IMG/VR virus record: IMGVR_UViG_2565956608_000011
Reading direction: 5' to 3' (one strand)
DNA length: 36,995 nt
DNA from: a virus
Taxonomy: Duplodnaviria > Heunggongvirae > Uroviricota > Caudoviricetes
Positions 2,621-35,880 of this stretch are shown piece after piece. The notes below the pieces were generated by a model, which worked only from the letters and a program-made list of their open reading frames with translations, was not told the origin of the DNA and ran no database searches. Every line of letters starts with the position of its first letter. Position 1 is the first letter of the stretch. The translations under genes and the position numbers were made by a program.

Positions 2621-2732
2621 AACTGAAGTTGCCCTGAAAATGAAATTTTTTTGCACAACCGCAGAACTTTTCCGCAGGGCATCAGTCTTAATTAGTGCCA
2701 CTGCTTTTCTTTGATGTCCCCATTTTGTGGAG

Positions 2733-2775
2733 CCCATCAACCCCGCCATTTCGGTTCAAGGTTGATGGGTTTTTT
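2733..2775 (+). terminator. putative rho-independent terminator downstream of ybjL
   Basis: inverted repeat CCCATCAACC ... GGTTGATGGG followed by TTTTTT. Confidence 0.4.
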
Positions 2776-2855
2776 GTTGCCTGAAATTTAAGCTGTTTAA
2801 AATCATGATGTTAGAAACACTGTTTTTTAACGATGGCGACAAAATGGCGGCAGCG

Positions 2856-25025: not shown

Positions 25026-26585
25026 TCAACCTTCATAGAGAAGTTTTTTCTTACGTATCTCTTCACTAAATGTCTTGGAATTCAAGTCAATCAAATTAAG
25101 ATCTCGAACTTTTCTAGATGCTGTATATTGACTAGTATCCAGCATATATGCCTCAAAAACTAAGCCATCAGCACCTTTCTTCAAAGTAACCCGAGACTGG
25201 ACTAAATGCACTAATCTTAAATCAATTAACTGGTTAATAGCATCCTTGACAGGGCCAGTCATTTTTTGATTAATTAGAAAAATATTACATTTTGCATCAT
25301 TCAAACAAAATGCCACAAGTTTTGTGAATGCTTCCTCCAAGGCAATACGATCATCATCAGCATCTAATTTAAATTCTTCACGCTTGATATCACCATATTC
25401 ACCAGTAGCAAGATTCACATCTTCTGCACCAATTCGAGGACCTCTAGGATGATCTGGCCCTCTTTCTCTCGCATGGTTAATAGCTTTAGTAAATATCCCA
25501 ATAAAGTCCCTAGTAACACCACCCGAAGCAATAATCAACCTATCTACTGCAGTCGTATTTAATAGTCCATTTACTGTGATAGGCGGCGTTTCTACCATTA
25601 GATTAGTGAGTATTTTTTGCATAAACTGTTTTAAAGTTGCAAATTTTTCCAAAGAAATATCTATATTTATTTCTTTTGCATCATCACCAAGTTTAACACC
25701 AGTAGGAGGATCTGTATGAATATACCATTCACTTCTATGCTTGATAGTACCAATTTTCAACCACAAACCATTTCCTTTGGCAACCCTATGAAAATAATCA
25801 ATAACTTTAGCCTGATCACTTCTTCTAATATGATATAGATCATCAAGTATTAAATATGCCGGCCCTTCAGACAATTCGGAAAGTTTGTTAAAAAACCTTT
25901 GAAACTTAAGTATATTTTGATGTAAGTATTCAGTTTTTAATGATTTATATCCTTCACTAATTTCTTTGGTACCTGTATTTCCTTTTTTAACTCCCACTCC
26001 TACATCTACTGGACCTTGCTTCAAGGAAGCATTACCAGAAGCTTCAAAACTTCTTGTGGAAGTTTCCTTTCTTTGCACATTAATTTCTTCTGGCTGCAAA
26101 AGTTTATTTTCTAAATCTTGAATGATGCCTTTGAGCTCACGGACAAGCTCATTTGTAGGATTTTTTTTGAAAGGTTTCCTTTCCGGCGCTCTACCAAAAA
26201 TTCGATTCCAAAAAGTAGTTTTAGTAGCTGGGGTTAATGCAGCAGTTTCTAACCAAACCTCGAATTCTTGTAGGCTTTTAATAAGAACACTAATTAGGAC
26301 ATCAGGGTATGAATGACCTTTAAATGTCTCCATATCAACAAAAGAAATTGGTCTTCTATCTATTGTTAGATCTGCAACTACCTTCCTCAACAATGAGGAC
26401 TTACCAGAGCCCCTTCTACCAAAAATCAAACTGTGCTGCTTGGCTTTCGATTGAGCAAGAACGCCAGGCGCGGGTTCTATGAATCTCTTGACATTTTCAG
26501 GCGTAGCCCTCATAGCTTCATCACACAAAATGATCAAGTTATCTACTTGTTCATCTCTTAACTGAGATATTTCGTTTTTAGACAT
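25026..26585 (-). CDS. cargo P-loop NTPase of unknown function (candidate anti-phage protein)
   Basis: 519-aa ORF with Walker A GRRGSGKSS (aa ~57-65) and Walker-B-like LILDDL (aa ~240) separated by a Lys/Glu-rich insert; AT-rich unlike the phage backbone; AAGGA RBS. Confidence 0.6.
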   Translation of the reverse strand: MSKNEISQLRDEQVDNLIILCDEAMRATPENVKRFIEPAPGVLAQSKAKQHSLIFGRRGSGKSSLLRKVVADLTIDRRPISFVDMETFKGHSYPDVLISVLIKSLQEFEVWLETAALTPATKTTFWNRIFGRAPERKPFKKNPTNELVRELKGIIQDLENKLLQPEEINVQRKETSTRSFEASGNASLKQGPVDVGVGVKKGNTGTKEISEGYKSLKTEYLHQNILKFQRFFNKLSELSEGPAYLILDDLYHIRRSDQAKVIDYFHRVAKGNGLWLKIGTIKHRSEWYIHTDPPTGVKLGDDAKEINIDISLEKFATLKQFMQKILTNLMVETPPITVNGLLNTTAVDRLIIASGGVTRDFIGIFTKAINHARERGPDHPRGPRIGAEDVNLATGEYGDIKREEFKLDADDDRIALEEAFTKLVAFCLNDAKCNIFLINQKMTGPVKDAINQLIDLRLVHLVQSRVTLKKGADGLVFEAYMLDTSQYTASRKVRDLNLIDLNSKTFSEEIRKKKLLYEG

Positions 26586-26966: not shown

Positions 26967-27707
26967 ATGACTGTGCACAAGCTCTCTGGTGCGTTTTTCC
27001 ACGATATGCAGGTTGAGTGGCCCTGCCCTAACTGCAATCAGAAAACCCTACAGATCATTAAAGAAAGTTTCGTCTCGTATGACACACATGATACCCGAAA
27101 ATTCCGCAGTGAAGATTGGTTTGAACCAGAAATGGATTCATCTATTTTCAGTTGCATGGCCCGCTGTTCAAGAATGCAATGTGGTGAAGTTGTGGCCTGT
27201 ACTGGTAAGAGTGGATGGGAACAAGGTTGGGATGAAGAAAGAAATGATATTGAGTACTATCAATGGCACAGACCTTTCACCTTTTACCCATCACTGCATC
27301 CTTTCGAAATACCTAAAAAATGCCCAGAAGAAATTACCGAACCGCTTGAAGCCTCATTTTCCATTTTCCTAATACAGCCTGGCGCAGCAGCAAACCTAAT
27401 TCGAATTTCAGTTGAAAGAATGCTAACCGCTATGGATGTAGCTGAACGTAATGATAATGGCAAACGCATAACTCTACACCACCGTTTAGGGATGCTACCT
27501 GAATTATACGGATCGTTTTCAAGACCTCTTATGGCAATTAAATTTTTAGGAAATGCCGGAAGCCATACCTACGATGAAGTAAAAGTCAAAGACATTGAGG
27601 ATGCTTTTGAGATTATGGAGTACGTCGTCAATGACTTGTTCTCCGGTCGCAAAGAATCTGTCGAAGTATTGACGAAACGATTAAGTGAAAAATTCAAAGA
27701 AAACTGA
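26967..27707 (+). CDS. cargo protein: N-terminal zinc ribbon plus C-terminal DUF4145-like domain (candidate defence protein)
   Basis: 246-aa ORF with GAGGAA RBS; CPNC...C-x3-C-x4-C cysteine cluster; C-terminal region (LGNAGSHTYDEVKVKDIEDAFEIMEYVVNDLF) resembles DUF4145 from memory; AT-rich. Confidence 0.55.
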   Translation: MTVHKLSGAFFHDMQVEWPCPNCNQKTLQIIKESFVSYDTHDTRKFRSEDWFEPEMDSSIFSCMARCSRMQCGEVVACTGKSGWEQGWDEERNDIEYYQWHRPFTFYPSLHPFEIPKKCPEEITEPLEASFSIFLIQPGAAANLIRISVERMLTAMDVAERNDNGKRITLHHRLGMLPELYGSFSRPLMAIKFLGNAGSHTYDEVKVKDIEDAFEIMEYVVNDLFSGRKESVEVLTKRLSEKFKEN

Positions 27708-27835: not shown

Positions 27836-28069
27836 CTAATGCAGCCAGCTGTCGTCTTCCCACACCTTCTGCATAATTTTCATCACTTGTTTTCTTTCTT
27901 CGTCCAGTTGCAGTCCGGTCAGTTCCACACCGTTAGAGCTACCTTTGCGGATACGAATTACCGTTTTTGGATACAGGGGGCGCAGATTGCGGTAAAGCTC
28001 GGATTCAAGGGCATCCAGGATAGACTGGCTAATCTTCTGCTCTTTATCGATCATTATTTCAATGCGCAT
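27836..28069 (-). CDS. dinI: DinI-family protein
   Basis: 77-aa product from Met MRIEIMIDK with GAGGTG RBS; N-terminal MRIE and C-terminal WEDDSWL resemble DinI. Confidence 0.7.
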   Translation of the reverse strand: MRIEIMIDKEQKISQSILDALESELYRNLRPLYPKTVIRIRKGSSNGVELTGLQLDEERKQVMKIMQKVWEDDSWLH

Positions 28070-28079
28070 AAAAGTCACC

Positions 28080-28268
28080 TCAACTGATGACATCCATTGA
28101 GCGGTTGTATTCGTGGGTTCTGATTTTTGCCATGAGTTCATCTGTTAGTTCAGAAACCCACTGCAAAGCCAGCCCCTTCTCTTCATCACTACACTCACTA
28201 GCCGCTACAAGCTTAAGAAAAAAATCAATGCGCTGGAGCTTCAAAGACTCCAAAAAATAGTCCTGCAT
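28080..28268 (-). CDS. small SOS-controlled protein, possible Tum-like antirepressor
   Basis: 62-aa product from internal Met MQDYFLESL with AGGAGG RBS; LexA box lies just upstream; position matches the 186 tum operon between A and cos. Confidence 0.45.
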   Translation of the reverse strand: MQDYFLESLKLQRIDFFLKLVAASECSDEEKGLALQWVSELTDELMAKIRTHEYNRSMDVIS

Positions 28269-28311
28269 TTTTCCTCCTATGACACCACAAGCAATACTGT
28301 ATGCATAACCA

Positions 28312-28327
28312 CTGTTTATATTTACAG
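28312..28327. promoter_or_regulatory. LexA operator (SOS box) overlapping the promoter of the small-protein/dinI operon
   Basis: CTGTTTATATTTACAG (CTGT-N8-ACAG) within CACTGTTTATATTTACAGTA; candidate TTTACA -35 and TATACT -10 on the minus strand overlap it. Confidence 0.7.
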
Positions 28328-28421
28328 TATATAATAATCTTACTGATGTAAAACGTTTTTTTACGTTCATCAGCCTGATATGCCTGGTATTATTAAGAGC
28401 ACGAATTGTTAACCCGCGTAA

Positions 28422-30836
28422 TTAATACAGATCCCGCCACTTATCATCTTCCTGCAAACGCTGGTTCCGATAGAAGATACGCAGGCCTGCTCCTGACGGA
28501 ATACTGCCGCCGCGAAGGAGTAAATCGACCTCTTTCTCGCTGCCATCAAATCCTCTGGACTTCAGTTCATAGACGAGCTGCTGTCGTTGATGGTCTGTAA
28601 TTCGCTGTTTGTAGTCTCTACGCCGTTTCGGTTTCACCAGGCGTAACCTTGCAGCCAGTTCCCGGCGTTCTTTTTTGTTCATACTGTGCAGGTAATCGTG
28701 CAACTCCTTGTCATCCATACGGGTGATATCCGTTCTGGTATCCCCATCAGCTGATTTGTCTTTCCCTTGTTGGTACAAATTTTCAGCAAGGGGACAGTTA
28801 TTGCCACGAGTCCAAGGGGCGCAAGCGCCCTGGTCGGCTGCCGCCTCCTGAACATCAACGGCCTTACGAACCATTTTCCACTTCACGGCATGAGTGCAGA
28901 TCTTGCCCTCTGCAATAGGTGACCAGATGCCATAAATACGAATGCCGTGATCGCCATAGGCGGTCGGCTCTTCGTTGATTTCATAAGCGGTTCTGATGAG
29001 GTGATATTTGCGGGGAACCAGTACGCCGCCCTGCTTCATGATGTAGGTGGCAAAACAACCAGCATCAGCAGCAGCCAGGATGGCATCAAGGCGTGGGTTA
29101 TCCAGTACCGGCGCACCTGCTTTTTTGTCCCCCTGTTGCCTTGCCGCCTGACCAGCCAGCAATCGCAGTTCACGGTAAGCCTGACGCCCCGGAATGCCAA
29201 AGAAGCGGAATTGCTGAACACGATGCAGAGACGCCCAGGCATTAACGTATTCAGCATTATCACGCAGGGATTTCCCCGTTTCCTTGCTGATCTCGCCAGC
29301 CAGACCACGCCCGTCAATGTTCTTACTGATGTATTTCGCGATGTAGCTTGTTGGCGTTCCTTTGCGCGGGTTAATCAACTCAGACTTAAAGCGCGGCCCA
29401 GTGTTATTGCCCAGCTCCTCGCGGTCTTCACGGATGGCAAACTTACGCAGTAATGCAGTGATGGCACGGCGGTCTTTTTTGCGCATGAAACACAACAGGT
29501 GCCAGTGAACTGTGCCGTCATGATGCGGCTCAGCCACCCGCACGCCATACCAGCGCAACCCGGCTTTGTGCATCGCCTTACGAAATGCAGCAAACATGCC
29601 GACCAGATAATCGCTGCTTTGTCTTACCGTCGCGTTTGTCCAGGTCGGGTTTGGTCTGCCGTTATTGAGCGTGGAATGGAAACGTGACGGACAGGTGATG
29701 GTGTAGAAAACGGCGCAGTCACCGCGCATTTCCGCGATAAGCTCCAGACCTTTAACACAGGCCATCATCTCATTGCGGCGATGCGCCGGGTTGCTGCTGC
29801 TGGCGTTTACCACATCCTCCATGTCCAGCGTGTCGCCGTCTTCGTTCACCAGTTCATGAGAACGGAAAAACTCCAGCGACTTACGGCGCTGCTCACGTTT
29901 ATGCATCACGGCTTCATAGCTGACATAGGGAGATGCTTTTTTGCTGACCAGGCAGACAGCACGCAACTGCTCTTCCCGCCATTCGCAACGCATCTTCCAT
30001 AATTTCCGATACCACCAATCGGCGCACAACATACGCGCCAGCGAACCCGGAATGAGTTCATAGGGCACGGGTTTACGGCGGTTTCTTTTCCAACGGAGTT
30101 GCTCAAACGCAGGAGGGATTACATCCAGACGCAGGGTTTCCGCTGCCACCTTTTCCCATGTCTTGCGGATTTCTTCTGGCTTAACGTCATCGGTGGCATA
30201 CAAATCACCACAAGCTGCATCAAGGCACATGCTCATATGCGCGGCAACAAGGGTAGACAGGCGCTTCACCTGATCCTGACTCATTTCAGGCAGGATCAGC
30301 AGGCCGTCCAGCCCTTCATGGCTTGCCATAAAGCGAAAAGAAGTGGATAGCTGACTCTCGCGTACATGCTCCAGTCGTTCCAGACATGGCTTAATCGTCT
30401 CACGCAAATAGCGGGAATAAGCCTTTGGCCTGCCCAGGCTGCTGAAGTATTCAATACGTTGCATCAGCGGCTTGCTGATATGGGAAGGCTGGGCGTTGAC
30501 GTCCGCCAGAATGACCATATCCGGATTAAAACGCTGCTGCTCATGCGCCAGCTTTGCCCGACTAATGAGCTTATCCTGCTCGATTTCGCGCTGGACAGGA
30601 TCACGGGATTCATTAAAGAAATAACGCTCCCAGACCTGATCACTCAGCGCCTCACGGCGCAGCTGTTCCTGCTCGTTATCGGCAGCGTACAGAGTGATCA
30701 GGTTTGAAAGCGCAGAAACCGGCGCAACTTCCGCCGGGTCCAGATAAGGGTTAATGGCCTTTTTCGGGCTGCTCCATGAGAATGCTGCTGCGACCTCGTT
30801 AAAGCCGCTGCAGTTGTTCATATCAGCATGGCTCAT
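28422..30836 (-). CDS. A: replication initiation protein A (rolling-circle nickase type)
   Basis: 804-aa ORF, last large gene of the early operon; recognised as P2/186 gpA-like. Confidence 0.85.
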
Positions 30837-31690
30837 GCACGCACTCCGTACACGGCAGAACTATCCACGCCACGCGAAGGATCAAATCCCACCCAGCAGC
30901 GCGGCCCGGAAACAGCGATGATTTCTGTTGCTGATTTACACTCGCCAGCTGCCACACCGATGCTGCGTTTTACCTTGATATAGTGGTGAGTAAAATTGCG
31001 ATACAGCGAACGAATCAGGGATGTGTCACTGTTAGAAACAATGACCGGATGTCCTTCAGATGATCGATGTTCAAGAACGGATGCCAGGTGATACTGGTCA
31101 TCTTCAGTGAAACCATCAGTGTGATAGCCGGAAAACGTACCGTCATAAGGCGGATCGCAATACACCACATCCCCTGCCTTCAACATCGCCAGCGTTTCAT
31201 CAAAGCTGGCGCAGATAAACGTTGCCCGCTGGGCTTTTTCTGCAAATGCGCGAATTTCTTTTTCAGGGAAATACGGATTTTTATAATTCCCGTAGGGAAT
31301 GTTGAAATGTCCGCTCTTGTTATAACGACATAACCCACGGTAACCGTGACGATTGAGATACAGGAAATATACTGCTTTCATGAAATCAGTAATTTCAGAT
31401 GAGTAATTAAACTCCTGCCTTATGTTGTAATAAGCCACCTCCCTGTTTGCTTCCTCAAATAAGACTCTGGCACGAGATATAAATGATTCGCAATCAGCGG
31501 CAATCTTTTTATAGAGGTTGATTAAATCAGGATTAATATCAGCAACCAGATAGCTGGGGTAATCCGTCGCCATCATCACAGCACAGGAACCCGCGAAAGG
31601 TTCAACCAGTCGCGGGCCAGCAGGAAGGTGTTTTTTCAGTTCGGACATAATGGCGGTTTTATTACCCGCCCATTTCAGGATGGTGCTCAT
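30833..31690 (-). CDS. Dam-family DNA N6-adenine methyltransferase
   Basis: motifs LKWAGNK, VEPFAGS and DPPY; start at ATG 31690 (GGAGGT RBS) overlapping the upstream stop (ATGA); stop overlaps the A start. Confidence 0.8.
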
Positions 31691-31914
31691 ACAGCACCTC
31701 CGTTGTAATGTTTGCCTTTCAGCTCTGCGATTTCCTGGCAGGTAATGCAAAGCTGCACTCCCGGAATGGCGCGGCGTCGTGCTGGCGGAATTGGCGCTTC
31801 ACATTCAATACAAAGCACGCGAGACACGCCCGGTGTTTTGGCACGGGCAGCACGAATATGGCGCTGGCGTTCTTCTTCAACGCGCTGCTGTACGAGATCC
31901 ATTGCATCAGCCAT
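31687..31914 (-). CDS. TraR/DksA-family C4 zinc-finger protein
   Basis: 75 aa with CxxC-x17-CxxC (CIECEAPI...CITCQE). Confidence 0.7.
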   Translation of the reverse strand: MADAMDLVQQRVEEERQRHIRAARAKTPGVSRVLCIECEAPIPPARRRAIPGVQLCITCQEIAELKGKHYNGGAV

Positions 31915-32153
31915 TAGTGGATCTCCTGCGCTTCGTTCTGGATTGCTTCAGCAGTTACACGCAGCAGTTCTGCCGCTTCGACGTGGTTTAGCTGGCGGGA
32001 TGTGATATGACACGCCAGGCTATCAAGGCGAGCTGCCATTGCTTCAGCCCTTGCCCGGCGTTCTTCCAGACGAGCCTCTGTCAGTAAAATATTAAGCCCT
32101 GCGTCATCCGGTCCGGTTTTAGTCGTGAGGATTTCAATATTACGCATAATCAA
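31914..32153 (-). CDS. hypothetical early protein
   Basis: 79-aa ORF tightly packed in the early operon. Confidence 0.5.
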   Translation of the reverse strand: MIMRNIEILTTKTGPDDAGLNILLTEARLEERRARAEAMAARLDSLACHITSRQLNHVEAAELLRVTAEAIQNEAQEIH

Positions 32154-32214
32154 TTCTCCTGAATTTAGATAAAGGGATGCCCGGCGGGTTTACGCCATTA
32201 ATTTCATTAGTTGG

Positions 32215-32568
32215 TTAATTCGGCATGGTTAGCCGTCTGGGAAATAAGCTCACCACCGCACGAAAATGATTCATTGCTTTAATCAGCTCCCGCTTTTCGT
32301 CAGTGGTCAGCTCATTAATGCTGATGCTATGACGTTCAGCTGGAATTTTTGCCATAAAGAATATAGCAGCCAGTGCCCGTTTATTTTGTTCATTATTGAT
32401 ATCCCGTGGATCACGCATATCTTTAATAAACCGCTCAAGCTCTGACTCAATATTCAAACCAAAAACTTTCGCCCTTAACTCCGCAATATGATTAAGTCCA
32501 TTCAGGCGTTCACCGGGTCTTAATGGAACAGTCGCCGCAGCGCCTTCAATAGCCATTTGTTCCCCCAT
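32215..32568 (-). CDS. hypothetical early protein
   Basis: 117-aa ORF in the early operon; start uncertain. Confidence 0.5.
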   Translation of the reverse strand: MGEQMAIEGAAATVPLRPGERLNGLNHIAELRAKVFGLNIESELERFIKDMRDPRDINNEQNKRALAAIFFMAKIPAERHSISINELTTDEKRELIKAMNHFRAVVSLFPRRLTMPN

Positions 32569-32720
32569 TTTTTCGTAGATAGTTCTGCCAGCAATTCATC
32601 TTGTGAACGGCACGGATGCCAGCGTTTACCATCCTCACCCATGATCCAGCCGTGACCGTAGTGCATTGCCGGACTTTGTTTTACCAGCAGCGATGCAAAT
32701 GATGGTTCTTTCGTCAGCAT
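32520..32720 (-). CDS. hypothetical small early protein
   Basis: about 66 aa from internal Met MLTKEPSF; overlaps neighbours as is typical of compact phage operons. Confidence 0.4.
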   Translation of the reverse strand: MLTKEPSFASLLVKQSPAMHYGHGWIMGEDGKRWHPCRSQDELLAELSTKKWGNKWLLKALRRLFH

Positions 32721-32727
32721 AAGCACC

Positions 32728-33237
32728 TCACAGCAAACCGAATGAAGCACCGAGGCCAGTCACGGTATCAACTGCACTCGCCATCGCAGGATTAGCCTGT
32801 AAACGGGCCTGCAATGAAACAGCGGCCAGCGCCATCAGTCGTGTTACAGAGTTAATGCTGCTGATAGCATCACGACGACCTGCACTGGTTTTTACATCGC
32901 CAGATACCGCACCTGCAGCAACACGCCCGATCTCTGCGGTTGCACTCATGACATAATGCGGCAGTTTCTCTTTTGCCACCTCATTAATCGGTACACATGG
33001 CAGGCAGTGAATCTGTGCCAGAAAGCCATCTACCAGCGTTGAATCTTCAGTCAGATCGGTAAGCAACCAGATTTCTGGTGCGGTTAATAAATGAGGTTGA
33101 GCTGGGTTCAGCTTGTTCCGCAGAATCTGTACATTCATGCCTGCACGTTCTGCCAGTCGCACCAGGTTGTGGCGCAGTGCGAATGCACGACAGGCTTCGT
33201 CAAAATGTGGATGTTTGGAAACTTGGTAATCAAACAT
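32728..33237 (-). CDS. CII-like HTH regulator (186 cII / P2 B position)
   Basis: 169-aa product from Met [15 protein letters not shown] with GGGGTG RBS; HTH-like segment [17 protein letters not shown]; second gene of the lytic operon. Confidence 0.6.
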
Positions 33238-33269
33238 AGTCGACACCCCTGATGTATCCCAAAATGGAA

Positions 33270-33491
33270 CTAGTTGAATACAACATTGCAATCAGTAAGT
33301 GCATCAACGGTAAGAGCAGCAAGGTTGATCATTACCTTTTCTCTTTTCTTGTCTTTCCGAAGGCGATGGCGAGGGATGCGACCATCAGCCAGCATATCGT
33401 TGATGGTGTCGATAGAAAGACCAGTAAGTTCGCTATAACGCTCAATTGTGACGTGTGGCGTATTCAGAGTTATTGAAATGTTAGGGGTCAT
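33270..33491 (-). CDS. Apl/Cox-type excisionase and switch repressor
   Basis: 73-aa product from ATG 33491 (AGGAGA RBS 8 nt upstream); first gene of the early lytic operon, facing cI. Confidence 0.65.
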
Positions 33492-33586
33492 GATGCAACA
33501 TCTCCTATTGGCTTGTGGTGAGCCTGTAGTAATCGTGACAAGTACCCAAACGGGGACAAAATTGATACTAGGATCGCAAAAGAGAT
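33492..33586. promoter_or_regulatory. lysis-lysogeny switch region (pR/pL-type promoters and operators)
   Basis: 95-bp gap between divergently oriented apl-like and cI genes; individual promoter hexamers not resolved. Confidence 0.5.
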
Positions 33587-34183
33587 ATGTCAACATCAAA
33601 GTACCCAAATGAGATCAAAATAAATCCCAATAAAGGTGGTAAGGCTGCGATTGAGCGATTAGTCGAAGCTTATGGCTTTACGACACGACAGGCTTTAGCT
33701 GATCACTTGGAAGTATCAAAAAGCACTCTGGCGAACAGGTATTTGCGGGATACGTTTCCTGCAGACTGGATAATCCAATGTGCTCTTGAAACAGGAACCT
33801 CACTGAAATGGTTAACCACCGGGCAAGGCCTTAAGCAAAGCTCGCTGACAGCAGCTACAGAAGAGCTTGCCAAGTTTCGCCTTACCGCAGGCAAAATGAT
33901 TGAAGATGGTTCATATGTCTTCGATTCATCATTTCTTCCTGCAAATCTTTCATCACCAATTGTTATTCAGGATGGGCTCGTCACATACATTTGTGATCAA
34001 AAATTTTCTGAAGTACTTGATGGGCACTGGTTAATCAACATCGACGGAACCTATTCCATTCGAAAAATCACAAAGCTTCCAAAAGGTATGATTAAAATTA
34101 CAAGTACAGAGAATAGCTTTGAATGTGCATTTTCTGATATTGAAGTAGTTGCTTGTATAAGAAGTACAATAGTTTCAAATTAA
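33587..34183 (+). CDS. cI: immunity repressor CI (186-type, two-domain)
   Basis: 198-aa ORF with N-terminal HTH region (TTRQALADHLEVSKSTLANR), placed between apl and int. Confidence 0.75.
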   Translation: MSTSKYPNEIKINPNKGGKAAIERLVEAYGFTTRQALADHLEVSKSTLANRYLRDTFPADWIIQCALETGTSLKWLTTGQGLKQSSLTAATEELAKFRLTAGKMIEDGSYVFDSSFLPANLSSPIVIQDGLVTYICDQKFSEVLDGHWLINIDGTYSIRKITKLPKGMIKITSTENSFECAFSDIEVVACIRSTIVSN

Positions 34184-34203
34184 TATAGTAAAAGGATTTA
34201 AAA

Positions 34204-35880
34204 ATGAATTCATTTTCCATCGTTATATTCTTATTAGCATTTCTCGCCCCCATTCTAGCTGTAATATTATTTAAGCAAAGCAAAAAACATAAAGCGGCTA
34301 TAGATACCTTGACAGCTAACAACATAGCCCTTTCCAACCAACTGAAAGAAAATCAAGAAGAATTAGCACAGACTGTACGAGATCTATCAGAGCTTGAAGG
34401 ACGAGCTGCACCATTATGGCAATACGTAGAATTGCACAGCGCAGTGATGGAAGCAGAGAATAAGATAAAAAATGCAGACTCAATAGCCAGGCAAAAAATA
34501 GAAGAAGCCCAAATAAAGGCTGCTAAGACAGTAAACGAAGCAAATTATCAAGCTCAGATAAAAATAAGCAACGCTAATAGCGAAGCTATAGCAATTACTA
34601 AAGACGCTCGCGATGCACGCCTGAAAGCTAAAGAACGTCTTGATAATGCCAATAGTAAAGCAAATGAGCTGATCTCAAATGCTAATGACAATGCAGTGAA
34701 AATTATTTCCGATGCAGAAGAAAGAGCAAAAGAGATTGCTGGTTCAGCATATGAAGCTAAAGAGTTTGCAGAAAAATATGAAGCAGTTGCCAAATCAATG
34801 AAAAATAAAATTGAAGGTTATGGTGATGAATGGATCATCCCTAACCGTAGCGTTCTCGATGAATTGGCAGAAAATTATGAGTTTACAGATGCAGGCAAGG
34901 AATTACAAAAAGCCAGGGAGTTAACAAAATCATTAATAAAAACTAATAAAGCTGCTTCGTGTGATTATGTTGAACAAAACAGGCGTAATACTGCTATCAA
35001 CTTTGTTTTAGATGCCTTCAATGGAAGAGTTGACAGTATTTTATCAAAAGTCAAACACAACAATTTTGGAAAACTTTCCCAAGAGATAAAAGATGCGTTT
35101 CAACTTGTAAATTACAATGGTTCTGCCTTTAGGTCCGCAAAAATAAGTGACATCTATCTTCAAGCTCGACTCAACGAGCTAAAATGGGGTGTTGCAGTTA
35201 ATGAAATTATGCTCGAAGAAAAAGAAGAGCAAAGAAGGATTAAAGAACAACTTCGTGAAGAGGAAAGAGCTCGTAGGGAGTATGAAAAAGCGATAAAAGA
35301 AGCTGAAAAAGAAGAGAAAGCTATTCAGCAAGCTATAAATAAAGCAACAAAAGAGCTTATGCTTGCAAATGAAGAACAACGCTTAGCTTTAGAGCAAAAA
35401 ATAGCTGAACTACAGTTAAAATATGAAGAAGCTGAAGCTAAAAACCAACGAGCTATTTCTATGGCTCAACAAACTAGATCAGGCCACGTTTATATAATTA
35501 GTAATATTGGCTCATTTGGCGAAGATGTATATAAAATTGGAATGACACGCCGCCTTGAACCACTTGATCGTGTTCGTGAACTCGGTGATGCTAGTGTTCC
35601 TTTTTCGTTCGATGTTCATGCGATGATTTATAGTGATGATGCACCATCATTAGAAAATCATCTGCATAAAGTCTTCAACGAAAAACAGGTCAATAAAATT
35701 AACTCACGAAAAGAGTTTTTCAACGTAAATATTAAAGAAATTAAGTCTGTTATTGAAGATATGAACATCAACGCACAATGGACAATGTTTGCGGAAGCGA
35801 AAGAATATAGAGAGTCACTGGCGATTGAGCAAGAGCGCAAAGCAGCAACTTCCGCCAACGATGAACTGCATGTTGCTTAG
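34204..35880 (+). CDS. cargo protein: N-terminal TM anchor, long coiled coil (DUF4041-like), C-terminal T5orf172/GIY-YIG-like domain
   Basis: 558-aa AT-rich ORF inserted between cI and int; hydrophobic N-terminus SIVIFLLAFLAPILAVILF; repeated NANS/NADS heptad segments; C-terminal HVYIISN...YKIGMTRRLEPLDRVREL. Confidence 0.6.
   Translation: MNSFSIVIFLLAFLAPILAVILFKQSKKHKAAIDTLTANNIALSNQLKENQEELAQTVRDLSELEGRAAPLWQYVELHSAVMEAENKIKNADSIARQKIEEAQIKAAKTVNEANYQAQIKISNANSEAIAITKDARDARLKAKERLDNANSKANELISNANDNAVKIISDAEERAKEIAGSAYEAKEFAEKYEAVAKSMKNKIEGYGDEWIIPNRSVLDELAENYEFTDAGKELQKARELTKSLIKTNKAASCDYVEQNRRNTAINFVLDAFNGRVDSILSKVKHNNFGKLSQEIKDAFQLVNYNGSAFRSAKISDIYLQARLNELKWGVAVNEIMLEEKEEQRRIKEQLREEERARREYEKAIKEAEKEEKAIQQAINKATKELMLANEEQRLALEQKIAELQLKYEEAEAKNQRAISMAQQTRSGHVYIISNIGSFGEDVYKIGMTRRLEPLDRVRELGDASVPFSFDVHAMIYSDDAPSLENHLHKVFNEKQVNKINSRKEFFNVNIKEIKSVIEDMNINAQWTMFAEAKEYRESLAIEQERKAATSANDELHVA

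Follow-up and report, generated by a model that had tools for sequence, protein, structure and literature searches.

The closest described relatives of the locus are found in phages and prophages of the P2 family. The window, by which we mean the whole stretch of 36,995 nucleotides that was analysed, is a Fels-2/RE-2010-type (Felsduovirus, 186-like) P2-family prophage in an E. coli-type chromosome beside rybB. The dam gene of the window, its position, and its annotation are already known and are standard for a very common prophage type. The 1.8-kb traR-dam-A block of Salmonella phage RE-2010 (Dam is gp10) and Escherichia phage Cartapus is 96% identical in DNA to that of the window. RE-2010 Dam shows only allelic differences from the window Dam (3-4% of residues), and the immunity region beside the RE-2010 operon is of another type than that of the window. 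The Dam protein of Fels-2 (STM2730) is 73% identical to the window Dam. Felsduovirus Dams (RE-2010, Cartapus, Fels-2, and many Klebsiella prophages) share the 285-aa length, the position, and the overlap with the traR stop codon with the window, and all are annotated as DNA adenine methylase. In Fels-2 and SEN8, gene A starts with GTG and is overlapped by dam over 10 nt, whereas the window has ATGA at this junction. Of 5426 complete E. coli genomes, 1246 (approximately 23%) contain the traR-dam-A block, and the exact window Dam protein occurs on at least 1000 public contigs, labelled "DNA adenine methylase". We found no functional study of this Dam enzyme in the literature on Fels-2, STM2730, Peduoviridae, and P2-like Dam.

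Several more distant systems are also informative. The name retron Ec67 Dam is borne by members of the 90% cluster of the window protein and by the Fels-2 record. The Ec67 Dam ORF reportedly has 285 residues and is about 44% identical to E. coli Dam. The likeness to Ec67 rests on this name and description, the window Dam having 285 aa and 47% identity to E. coli Dam; unlike Ec67, the window contains no retron, and its cos-side hotspot is occupied by an AAA ATPase gene and a DUF4145 gene. According to the title of the original report, retron Ec67 encodes a Dam methylase function (Hsu, Inouye & Inouye 1990, PNAS 87:9454), and Ec67 is located in a 186-related prophage (Dodd & Egan 1996). The chromosomal Dam of E. 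coli (EcoDam; PDB 2G1P and 4GOL) has the alpha motif order, DPPY, FxGxG, and the recognition hairpin in common with the window Dam. The two differ in that N120 and R137 of EcoDam are replaced by Arg and Asn, respectively, the 5-residue insertion after DPPY of EcoDam is missing, and a 22-residue C-terminal tail (W-x-G-x-D...G-x-D-x-S...VRA) is added in the window Dam; moreover, EcoDam is chromosomal, whereas the window Dam is phage-borne, in a presumably repressed operon. The early operon of phage 186 (pR-apl-cII-fil-dhr-orf79-orf80-orf81-orf83-orf84-A) is built like that of the window and likewise forms a chain of 4-nt overlaps, with Orf80 being TraR-like and A the replicase, but its dam slot contains an RNase T-type exonuclease, a DUF5405 protein, and a PAPS-reductase-domain protein. 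T4 Dam (PDB 1Q0S/1YFJ), P1 Dmt, phi80 damL, and Stx-phage Dam are orphan, phage-encoded enzymes of the same D12 family with a known or presumed GATC target, and they are 25-41% identical to the window Dam. Their genomic contexts and documented roles, for example in P1 pac cleavage, differ from those of the window Dam.

Family, motifs and predicted target of the window Dam

The gene and its motifs are located as follows.

30833..31690 (including the stop codon), minus strand: dam, orphan Dam-family N6-adenine DNA methyltransferase, 285 aa (PF02086, TIGR00571, PHROG 56, PDB 2g1p, dN/dS)
31577..31603, minus strand: AdoMet-binding motif I of the FxGxG type, E30-P-F-A-G-S-C-A-V38, aligned to EPFVGAGSV of EcoDam
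31283..31342, minus strand: DNA-recognition hairpin, residues 117-136 (Y117, R118, L120, R122, P132, Y136), by EcoDam equivalents
31145..31156, minus strand: catalytic motif IV, D179-P-P-Y182, codons GAT CCG CCT TAT, read from the sequence

On the minus strand, the ORF starts with ATG at 31690-31688 and ends with TGA at 30835-30833. The ORF list contains a longer version with a TTG start at 31750 (305 aa). Since the N-terminus beginning at ATG 31690 is conserved across 79 homologues and aligns with that of E. coli Dam, we take this ATG as the real start. The dN/dS values of dam against RE-2010, Fels-2, and SEN8 were 0.09-0.11, and those of traR and gene A were similar. The ORF is intact and selectively maintained under purifying selection.

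The window Dam covers positions 1-253 of the 253 profile positions of Pfam PF02086 (E=8.3e-77, 258.8 bits, cut-off 22), and it matches TIGR00571 'dam' with 320.4 bits (E 1e-95, cut-off 114.85) and PHROG 56 at 1e-123. Residues 4-263 match the E. coli Dam structures (PDB 2g1p/4gol) at 2.2e-74, with 47% identity over 260 residues. These matches are far beyond chance and, at the sequence level, place the protein in the D12-class (alpha) N6-adenine DNA methyltransferases of the Dam family. The order from motif I through the recognition hairpin to DPPY is the alpha order and is colinear with EcoDam. In the 79 homologues, F32 and G34 of motif I are invariant, as are D, the second P, and Y of DPPY, and the first P is present in 77. 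Since the score against the chromosomal Dam equivalog NCBIfam NF008152 was 290 bits, under the cut-off of 441, the window Dam represents a paralogous phage lineage, not the host dam. The best PADLOC model was 'oMTase' (orphan methyltransferase, 8.1e-112), and no restriction nuclease gene adjoins dam, its gene neighbourhood consisting of TraR, DUF2732, DUF5347, and gpA. The earlier note had described an orphan Dam-type adenine methyltransferase with a DPPY motif, and the profile and structure matches, the motif itself, and the gene neighbourhood all agree with that description.

Comparison with EcoDam also bears on the target site. The GATC bases are contacted in EcoDam by R124, Y119, N120, L122, P134, K9, and Y138 (PMC4417163), and in our alignment Y119, N120, L122, R124, P134, and Y138 fall in the equivalent hairpin. 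Six of these seven contacts are identical in the window Dam (K6, Y117, L120, R122, P132, and Y136). The seventh, N120, corresponds to Arg; 48 of the 79 prophage Dams have R at this position and 31 have N. Among the homologues, with identities down to 48%, R122 is present in all 79 and K6 is invariant, while P132 and Y136 are found in 77 and 75, respectively. Like some phage Dam-like enzymes, the window Dam might methylate adenine at a non-GATC target or with relaxed specificity, as the replacements of N120 by Arg and of R137 by Asn would allow, and of the contacts made by Dam family enzymes, the one that recognizes the first base pair is conserved least (PMC4417163). However, the equivalents of R124, L122, P134, Y119, K9, and Y138 are all present and oligonucleotide usage differs GATC-specifically between relatives with and without Dam, and we consider such a target highly improbable. 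Most likely, the window Dam transfers the methyl group from AdoMet to adenine N6 in GATC, as EcoDam does.

Gene order, overlaps and expression

The surroundings of dam comprise the following features.

31687..31914, minus strand: TraR/DksA-family C4 zinc-finger gene, 75 aa, homologue of 186 Orf80 and P2 Orf82 (PF01258 3.1e-11, TIGR02419 3.9e-18, PHROG 54)
28422..30836, minus strand: gene A, rolling-circle replication initiator/nickase, 804 aa (PF05840 Phage_GPA 1.4e-127, PHROG 91 5e-289)
31687..31690, minus strand: ATGA overlap of the traR-like stop TGA and the dam start ATG (TCAT on the plus strand), read from the sequence
30833..30836, minus strand: ATGA overlap of the dam stop TGA and the gene A start ATG (TCAT on the plus strand), read from the sequence
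31678..31701, minus strand: dam Shine-Dalgarno (SD) sequence GGAGG and predicted hairpin pairing GGAGGUGCU with AGCACC-A-UCC, AUG in the loop, by RNA folding
33565..33593, minus strand: pR-like early lytic promoter, TTGACA-17-TAGTAT, presumably driving apl/cII...traR-dam-A (consensus match, function by analogy)
33587..34183, plus strand: 186-type CI immunity repressor, 198 aa (PF07022 8e-32, PF16452 4e-27)

The operon reads cI <-> pR-apl-cII-...-DUF5347-DUF2732-traR-(cassette)-A-...-dinI/tum, an order that matches RE-2010, SEN8, Fels-2, and 186. A position between a TraR-like gene and gene A, with ATGA overlaps at both ends and inside the early replication operon, had been claimed for dam before. 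Profile matches identify both neighbours, each overlap is read directly as TCAT on the plus strand, and the gene order is that of RE-2010, Fels-2, and, the cassette aside, phage 186, so that this part of the earlier note is borne out. The arrangement is also stable in the family. Across 80 loci of various Enterobacterales species, with Dam identities of 48-95%, the order is always ...TraR, Dam, (PAPS reductase), gpA, and gpA lies downstream of Dam in 74 of them, the remaining 6 being interrupted by contig ends. The traR/dam junction has a -4 overlap in 53 of 81 homologous loci and an overlap of any length in 68; at the dam/A junction, 39 of the 63 scorable loci have a -4 overlap and 8 a -10 overlap.

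At both dam junctions, the stop/start overlap is combined with an SD sequence inside the upstream ORF: GGAGG (31701-31697) lies 6 nt ahead of the dam ATG, and GGAG (30847-30844) lies 7 nt ahead of the gene A ATG. For orf84 and A of 186, the only pair for which dependence of downstream on upstream translation is documented, the GenBank record notes that 'translation to end of orf84 appears necessary for translation of A protein'. Because each stop codon overlaps the next start, ribosomes could pass from traR to dam and from dam to A, and translational coupling along this chain is plausible. The earlier note had stated such coupling; the conserved 4-nt overlaps and the orf84-to-A precedent lend it support, and the coupling itself is what we infer from them.

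We also considered an SD-occluding hairpin as a conserved coupling device and rejected it. The fold of the 111-nt traR/dam junction of the window was significant (-42.9 kcal/mol, z = -4.67, none of 200 shuffles being equally stable), but family-wide conservation was not found over 73 distinct junctions, for which the mean z was -0.4 and only 8 had z < -2. The SD-sequestering hairpin is limited to close relatives, and its role is unproven because it is not conserved family-wide. The fold of the dam/A junction was non-significant (z = -1.19).

Given this arrangement, it is conceivable that the main importance of the ORF lies in its translation, as a leader bringing ribosomes to gene A, with the enzyme activity being incidental or decaying. 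The slot before A is variable, containing a PAPS reductase domain protein in 186, DUF5405 in P2, or nothing, in which case TraR abuts A; the unrelated slot genes all overlap A, and the requirement noted in 186 is that the upstream gene be translated and not that its product be present. On the other hand, dN/dS is about 0.1 along the entire dam, and the catalytic and DNA-contact residues are invariant in the 79 homologues down to 48% identity. In addition, Dam-less phages still couple other genes to A, and therefore coupling does not need Dam. We thus regard a mere leader function as quite unlikely.

With respect to transcription, the pR-like site is the only minus-strand sigma-70-like promoter match in 28000-34300 in a consensus-match scan. 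It lies directly against the start of the divergent cI, an arrangement also seen in 186, and dam lies approximately 1.9 kb downstream, with no promoter-like site found between the two in the same scan. Plus-strand promoter-like matches inside dam (31260, 30969, and 31346) were dismissed, since the region contains 6 matches against 8.5 +/- 2.9 in shuffled sequences. Because the sole upstream promoter is pR-like and abuts cI and no internal promoter-like site was detected, dam should be repressed in lysogens, and its role is probably in the lytic cycle and not in lysogenic conversion.

The earlier note had proposed that in lysogens the enzyme could change GATC methylation and gene expression of the host, that is, that prophage-expressed Dam acts as a lysogenic-conversion or epigenetic gene. 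A general precedent exists in prophage methyltransferases that can reprogram their hosts (10.1101/2024.04.17.589803), and this precedent is all that speaks for it. The proposal is unsupported at this locus, since dam lies 1.9 kb inside a pR-like-driven operon opposite cI without an internal promoter-like site, and E. coli, Salmonella, and Klebsiella hosts already methylate GATC through their own Dam. It also counts against lysogenic conversion that in Salmonella LT2, which is lysogenic for Fels-2, dam mutants reportedly lack GATC methylation. We consider lysogenic conversion very unlikely. An untranscribed 'Dam homolog', M.EcoMIV, has been described in prophage Phi2 of E. coli EC958 (PMC4659465). 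A link between it and the window dam was not made, as two 50-kb EC958 stretches contained no P2-like prophage. The only prophage genes in those two stretches were Mu-like (Mor and gp16), at the left edge of the second.

GATC content and proposed role

The general idea of a link between GATC avoidance in phages and Dam dates from 1984-1991. We compared observed/expected (O/E) GATC ratios between phages with and without Dam. The window prophage and Fels-2, both Dam+, had values close to random expectation, 0.88-0.90 (window 0.88), and 63 Dam+ IMG/VR loci had a median of 0.92. Dam-less phage 186 contains 14 GATC in 30.6 kb (O/E 0.12), the right end of Dam-less P2 had an O/E of 0.19, and the median of 76 loci with a 186-type gpA was 0.33. 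Of the 16 palindromic tetramers, GATC alone differs between the Dam+ and Dam-less sets, in what is essentially a phylogenetically uncorrected comparison of two clades. Inside the Fels-2-type clade, 8 Dam-less loci showed a weak, non-significant drop (median O/E 0.82, p = 0.09). A truncated dam occurs in one locus. GATC clustering near the ori-equivalent part of gene A was not found, and no DNA in the window matches the ori segment of 186.

It has been reported that host Dam methylates phage DNA poorly, and MutH has been proposed to counter-select GATC in enterobacteriophages (PMC5014478). The GATC pattern fits a role of Dam in preventing under-methylation of replicating phage DNA. Going further, we tentatively suggest that Dam carriage and GATC purging are alternative solutions in Peduoviridae to under-methylated GATC in fast-replicating DNA, an idea that we hold somewhat short of probable. 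The Dam cassette beside A might let the Fels-2-type lineage keep approximately 8-fold more GATC than 186, and a recent loss of Dam might then be followed by slow GATC erosion. To our knowledge, a GATC/Dam trade-off within one phage family has not been shown before by gene presence and absence.

Based on the observed identity, motifs, overlaps, synteny, purifying selection, and GATC statistics, we suggest that the gene encodes an intact orphan prophage Dam that would target GATC, be made only in the lytic cycle, be coupled to A, and keep the progeny methylated; as a whole, this explanation is likely. CI would keep the dam operon silent in the lysogen by repressing the pR-like promoter, so that the chain ...DUF2732-traR-dam-A would be transcribed in the lytic cycle alone. 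Through the stop/start overlaps, ribosomes ending traR would start dam, and those ending dam would start the replication initiator A. Since Dam would be made together with gpA, the methylation capacity would rise as rolling-circle replication multiplies the approximately 117 GATC sites per phage genome, and the progeny DNA would not be left un- or hemi-methylated. Such DNA may be spared MutH nicking, SeqA binding, and GATC-specific methylation-sensitive nucleases. Genes in the dam slot of 186 are annotated as non-essential in its GenBank record, and therefore any benefit of Dam would be quantitative.

The enzyme might instead serve as an anti-restriction 'export' methylase, such that fully GATC-methylated progeny survive MboI/DpnII/Sau3AI-type endonucleases in the next host, and an orphan methylase that is made only before packaging would suit this function. 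However, this phage group is known from Dam+ enteric hosts, neither the window nor the related loci give any sign of a specific GATC nuclease, and the GATC depletion of Dam-less relatives has been ascribed in the literature to MutH, not to restriction (PMC5014478). This reading overlaps with the progeny-methylation role preferred above, and the two are not mutually exclusive. Restriction protection by dam is not the best-supported reading, and as the main function of the gene we consider it rather unlikely.

As a discovery, this dam gene matters little, and its practical relevance is modest. It would be a second GATC methylase in approximately 23% of complete E. coli genomes, and work on methylomes or on dam mutants could be confounded by it when prophages are induced. 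The Dam+ and Dam-less P2-like phages provide a clean natural comparison for the old, unsettled question of GATC avoidance in enterobacteriophages.

The dam gene and its operon

The window holds a P2-family prophage within an E. coli-type chromosome; ybjM, ybjL and the RybB sRNA mark the left end, and int the right. The RybB gene (2700-2778, plus strand; Rfam RF00110, 105 bits) immediately adjoins the left end, and this RybB/ybjM/ybjL region is a likely attachment-site neighbourhood. The features considered are as follows.

33587-34183, plus: 186-type cI, facing the pR-like promoter
33593 to 33565, minus: pR-like sigma-70-like promoter, TTGACA-17-TAGTAT, the sole such minus-strand site in the region
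31914 to 31687, minus: traR-like gene (TraR/DksA C4 zinc finger, 75 aa), directly upstream of dam
31690 (ATG) to 30833 (TGA), minus: dam, 285 aa, read from the sequence
31145-31156, minus: DPPY catalytic motif of Dam, residues 179-182, read from the sequence
30833-30901, minus: C-terminal tail of Dam, residues 264-285, W-x-G-x-D-x-x-x-G-x-D-x-S...V-R-A
30836 to 28422, minus: gene A, encoding the rolling-circle initiator gpA (804 aa), directly downstream of dam
26967-27707, plus: DUF4145 protein gene
25026-26585, minus: AAA/ORC-Cdc6-like ATPase gene (519 aa), with the DUF4145 gene between the portal gene and dinI

Direct reading of the plus strand gave TCAT at both 31687-31690 and 30833-30836, so that the traR-like stop and the dam ATG, and likewise the dam TGA and the gene A ATG, overlap as ATGA on the coding strand. 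GGAGG lies 6 nt ahead of the dam ATG and GGAG 7 nt ahead of the gene A ATG. Automatic ORF extension placed the dam start at a TTG at 31750, which was ruled out by the conserved N-terminus beginning at 31690; this N-terminus is common to 79 homologues and aligns with that of E. coli Dam. The sequence reading showed that the earlier note had described the ORF and its overlaps accurately in every detail.

Ahead of the traR-like gene are DUF2732 and DUF5347 genes and the CII (CP76) gene, and a DinI-like gene lies downstream of gpA. A minus-strand scan found no promoter-like sites between the pR-like promoter and dam. The layout is that of the pR early lytic operon of phage 186, which upholds the operon position proposed earlier, with TraR upstream and gpA downstream. 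Within 33540-33616 (minus), direct repeats TTTGGGTACTT with a spacing of about 58 bp flank the pR-like promoter and are candidate CI or Apl sites. A GATC at 33572-33575 precedes the -10 hexamer by 1 nt, and another at 33613-33616 precedes the -35 by about 20 bp; methylation at these sites could in principle touch early-promoter activity.

Two further features were noted in the prophage. A 558-aa DUF4041 and T5orf172/MUG113 protein (34204-35880, plus), inserted between cI and int, matched the PADLOC anti-phage defence model PD-Lambda-1 (4e-120). The AAA ATPase and DUF4145 pair gave weak PADLOC matches (mad8, 3e-6; PD-T7-4, 2e-5) and possibly represents a defence pair not yet characterised; in the corresponding region, beside the portal gene or cos, P2 has old/tin and RE-2010 an AIPR protein.

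Protein family and expected target

The dam product matched PF02086 (D12 N6-adenine methyltransferase) end to end (Pfam, E = 8e-77), TIGR00571 "Dam family" (NCBIfam, 320 bits; cut-off 115), PHROG 56 "DNA methyltransferase" (1e-123) and the PADLOC "orphan methyltransferase" model (8e-112), and these profiles bear out the Dam-type identity and orphan status given in the earlier note. Its motifs follow the alpha-class order, with EPFAGS for AdoMet and DPPY for catalysis. The top solved-structure match was E. coli Dam (EcoDam; 2G1P, 4GOL; 2e-74, residues 4-263, 47% identity), with DpnM and T4 Dam ranking lower. Since it scored 290 bits, under the chromosomal-Dam equivalog cut-off of 441, the protein is a phage paralogue and no copy of the host gene.

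In EcoDam, the first base contact, which is also the strongest, comes from R124; Y119 intercalates, N120, L122 and P134 are also named as contacts, and K9 and Y138 recognise the first base pair (PMC4417163). The equivalents in the window Dam are R122, Y117, R118, L120, P132, K6 and Y136, with six of the seven identical. Among 79 prophage homologues, the most distant at 48% identity, R122, K6 and the D, P and Y of DPPY never vary; the differing position, R118, is occupied by R in 48 and by N in 31. Based on these retained contact residues, GATC is the expected target. The C-terminal tail is present in about 44 of the 79 prophage Dams and E. coli Dam does not have it; its last codons also form the gene A Shine-Dalgarno, and conservation reaches about 60 nt further upstream. 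The dN/dS of dam was 0.09-0.11, resembling traR and A, and by this measure the enzyme itself is under purifying selection.

Distribution, the cassette slot and coupling

The gene is already known and annotated in related phages. The 1.8-kb traR-dam-A block shares 96% identity with Escherichia phage Cartapus, Salmonella phage RE-2010 and many Klebsiella prophages, where the gene, if annotated, bears the name Dam or DNA adenine methylase. In Fels-2 it is STM2730, whose record notes similarity to "retron EC67 DNA adenine methylase"; the retron Ec67 element is located in a 186-related prophage. Of 5426 complete E. coli genomes, 1246 carry the block (identity up to 99.9%), and the identical protein is found on at least 1000 contigs, its 90% cluster having 4038 members. 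Decayed forms of the gene occur: a 5'-truncated dam was seen on one IMG/VR contig (L126, 6536-7009), and database proteins P0008, P0009, P0101, P0058 and P0063 fuse the Dam domain to Phage_GPD (PF05954) or gpA (PF05840); these forms are probably deletion or frameshift products in prophage remnants.

Scanning one genome per species yielded 80 loci whose Dam identity lies between 48% and 95%, in genera ranging from Escherichia to Xenorhabdus, Providencia and Morganella. The same operon houses Dam in all 80; gpA is downstream in 74, the remaining six ending at contig edges, and TraR is detectable upstream in 65. In 10 of the 80, Dam is separated from gpA by a PAPS-reductase-domain gene, and in 3 an exonuclease gene separates it from TraR. 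The slot contains three genes in 186, for an exonuclease, a DUF5405 protein and a PAPS-reductase-domain protein, and an exonuclease gene and dam in SEN8; P2 has DUF5405 (Orf83) immediately ahead of A, and in some phages the slot is empty. From these gene orders, the TraR-to-A slot is a variable cassette. The 186 gene in the Dam slot upstream of A, Orf84 (L002, 2150-3154; "unknown, non-essential"), carries a PAPS-reductase domain (1e-43), and its homologues lie between Dam and gpA in loci of other species (L020, L025, L028, L052, L065, L067, L070, L078, L082 and L088), which suggests that the dam cassette brings along a further function, as yet uncharacterised, in modifying nucleotides or DNA.

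The overlaps noted earlier at both ends of dam were confirmed in the window and are common across loci: the start overlap is -4 in 53 of 81 loci (any overlap in 68), and the stop overlap is -4 in 39 and -10 in 8 of 63 scorable loci. Because stop/start overlaps are kept whatever gene fills the slot, they belong to the operon and not to dam itself. The 186 record says that A appears to be translated only if orf84, which occupies this slot, is translated to its end, and that a terminator within A is active when A is untranslated. Translational coupling of traR, dam and A is likely. The traR/dam junction has an unusually stable predicted fold (z = -4.67), with the dam Shine-Dalgarno paired with codons 2-4 and the AUG in a loop. 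A 36-nt near-perfect hairpin, CAGCUUUGCAUUACCUGCCAGGAAAUCGCAGAGCUG (31720-31755, minus), in the zinc-finger coding part of the traR-like gene, adds to this fold. The folding comparison found that such a fold is not general across 73 distinct junctions, and the predicted fold of the dam/A junction in the window was unremarkable.

GATC frequency and the role of dam

We compared GATC frequency across the window prophage and loci L007, L089, L090, L004 and L091-L250.

GATC frequency in P2-like phages with (Dam+) and without (Dam-) dam. O/E, observed/expected count under a mononucleotide expectation.
Window prophage (2800-36995), Dam+: 117 GATC in 34.2 kb, O/E 0.88
Fels-2, Dam+: 117 GATC in 33.7 kb, O/E 0.90
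63 Dam-carrying IMG/VR loci: O/E median 0.92 (0.71-1.18)
Phage 186, Dam-: 14 GATC in 30.6 kb, O/E 0.12
P2 right end, Dam-: O/E 0.19
One Yersinia Eganvirus early region, Dam-: O/E 0.12
76 IMG/VR loci with 186-type gpA, Dam in none: O/E median 0.33 (0.13-0.69)

GATC frequency tracks Dam carriage in these phages, in what is essentially a contrast of two clades with statistics that ignore kinship. Of 16 palindromic tetramers, GATC alone set the two IMG/VR groups apart (ratio 0.42; others 0.77-1.17). Eight Dam-less loci inside the Fels-2-type clade ranged from intermediate to normal (0.57-0.97), with a median of 0.82 that is slightly but not significantly lower (p = 0.09). As discussed in PMC5014478 with reference to McClelland 1984 and Deschavanne & Radman 1991, enterobacteriophages avoid GATC, host Dam is a poor methylator of phage DNA, and unmethylated sites may be cut by MutH.

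Since dam lies within a CI-repressed operon and its hosts have a Dam of their own, it is unlikely to act in the lysogen, and the epigenetic effect on the lysogen proposed in the earlier note is not supported. Protection from restriction is a possible, secondary reading. If any point deserves pursuing, it is the difference in GATC content between P2-like phages that carry Dam and those that lack it. The GATC comparison supports a role of dam in the lytic cycle, in which phage Dam made alongside the replication initiator would remove the pressure against GATC in phage DNA.
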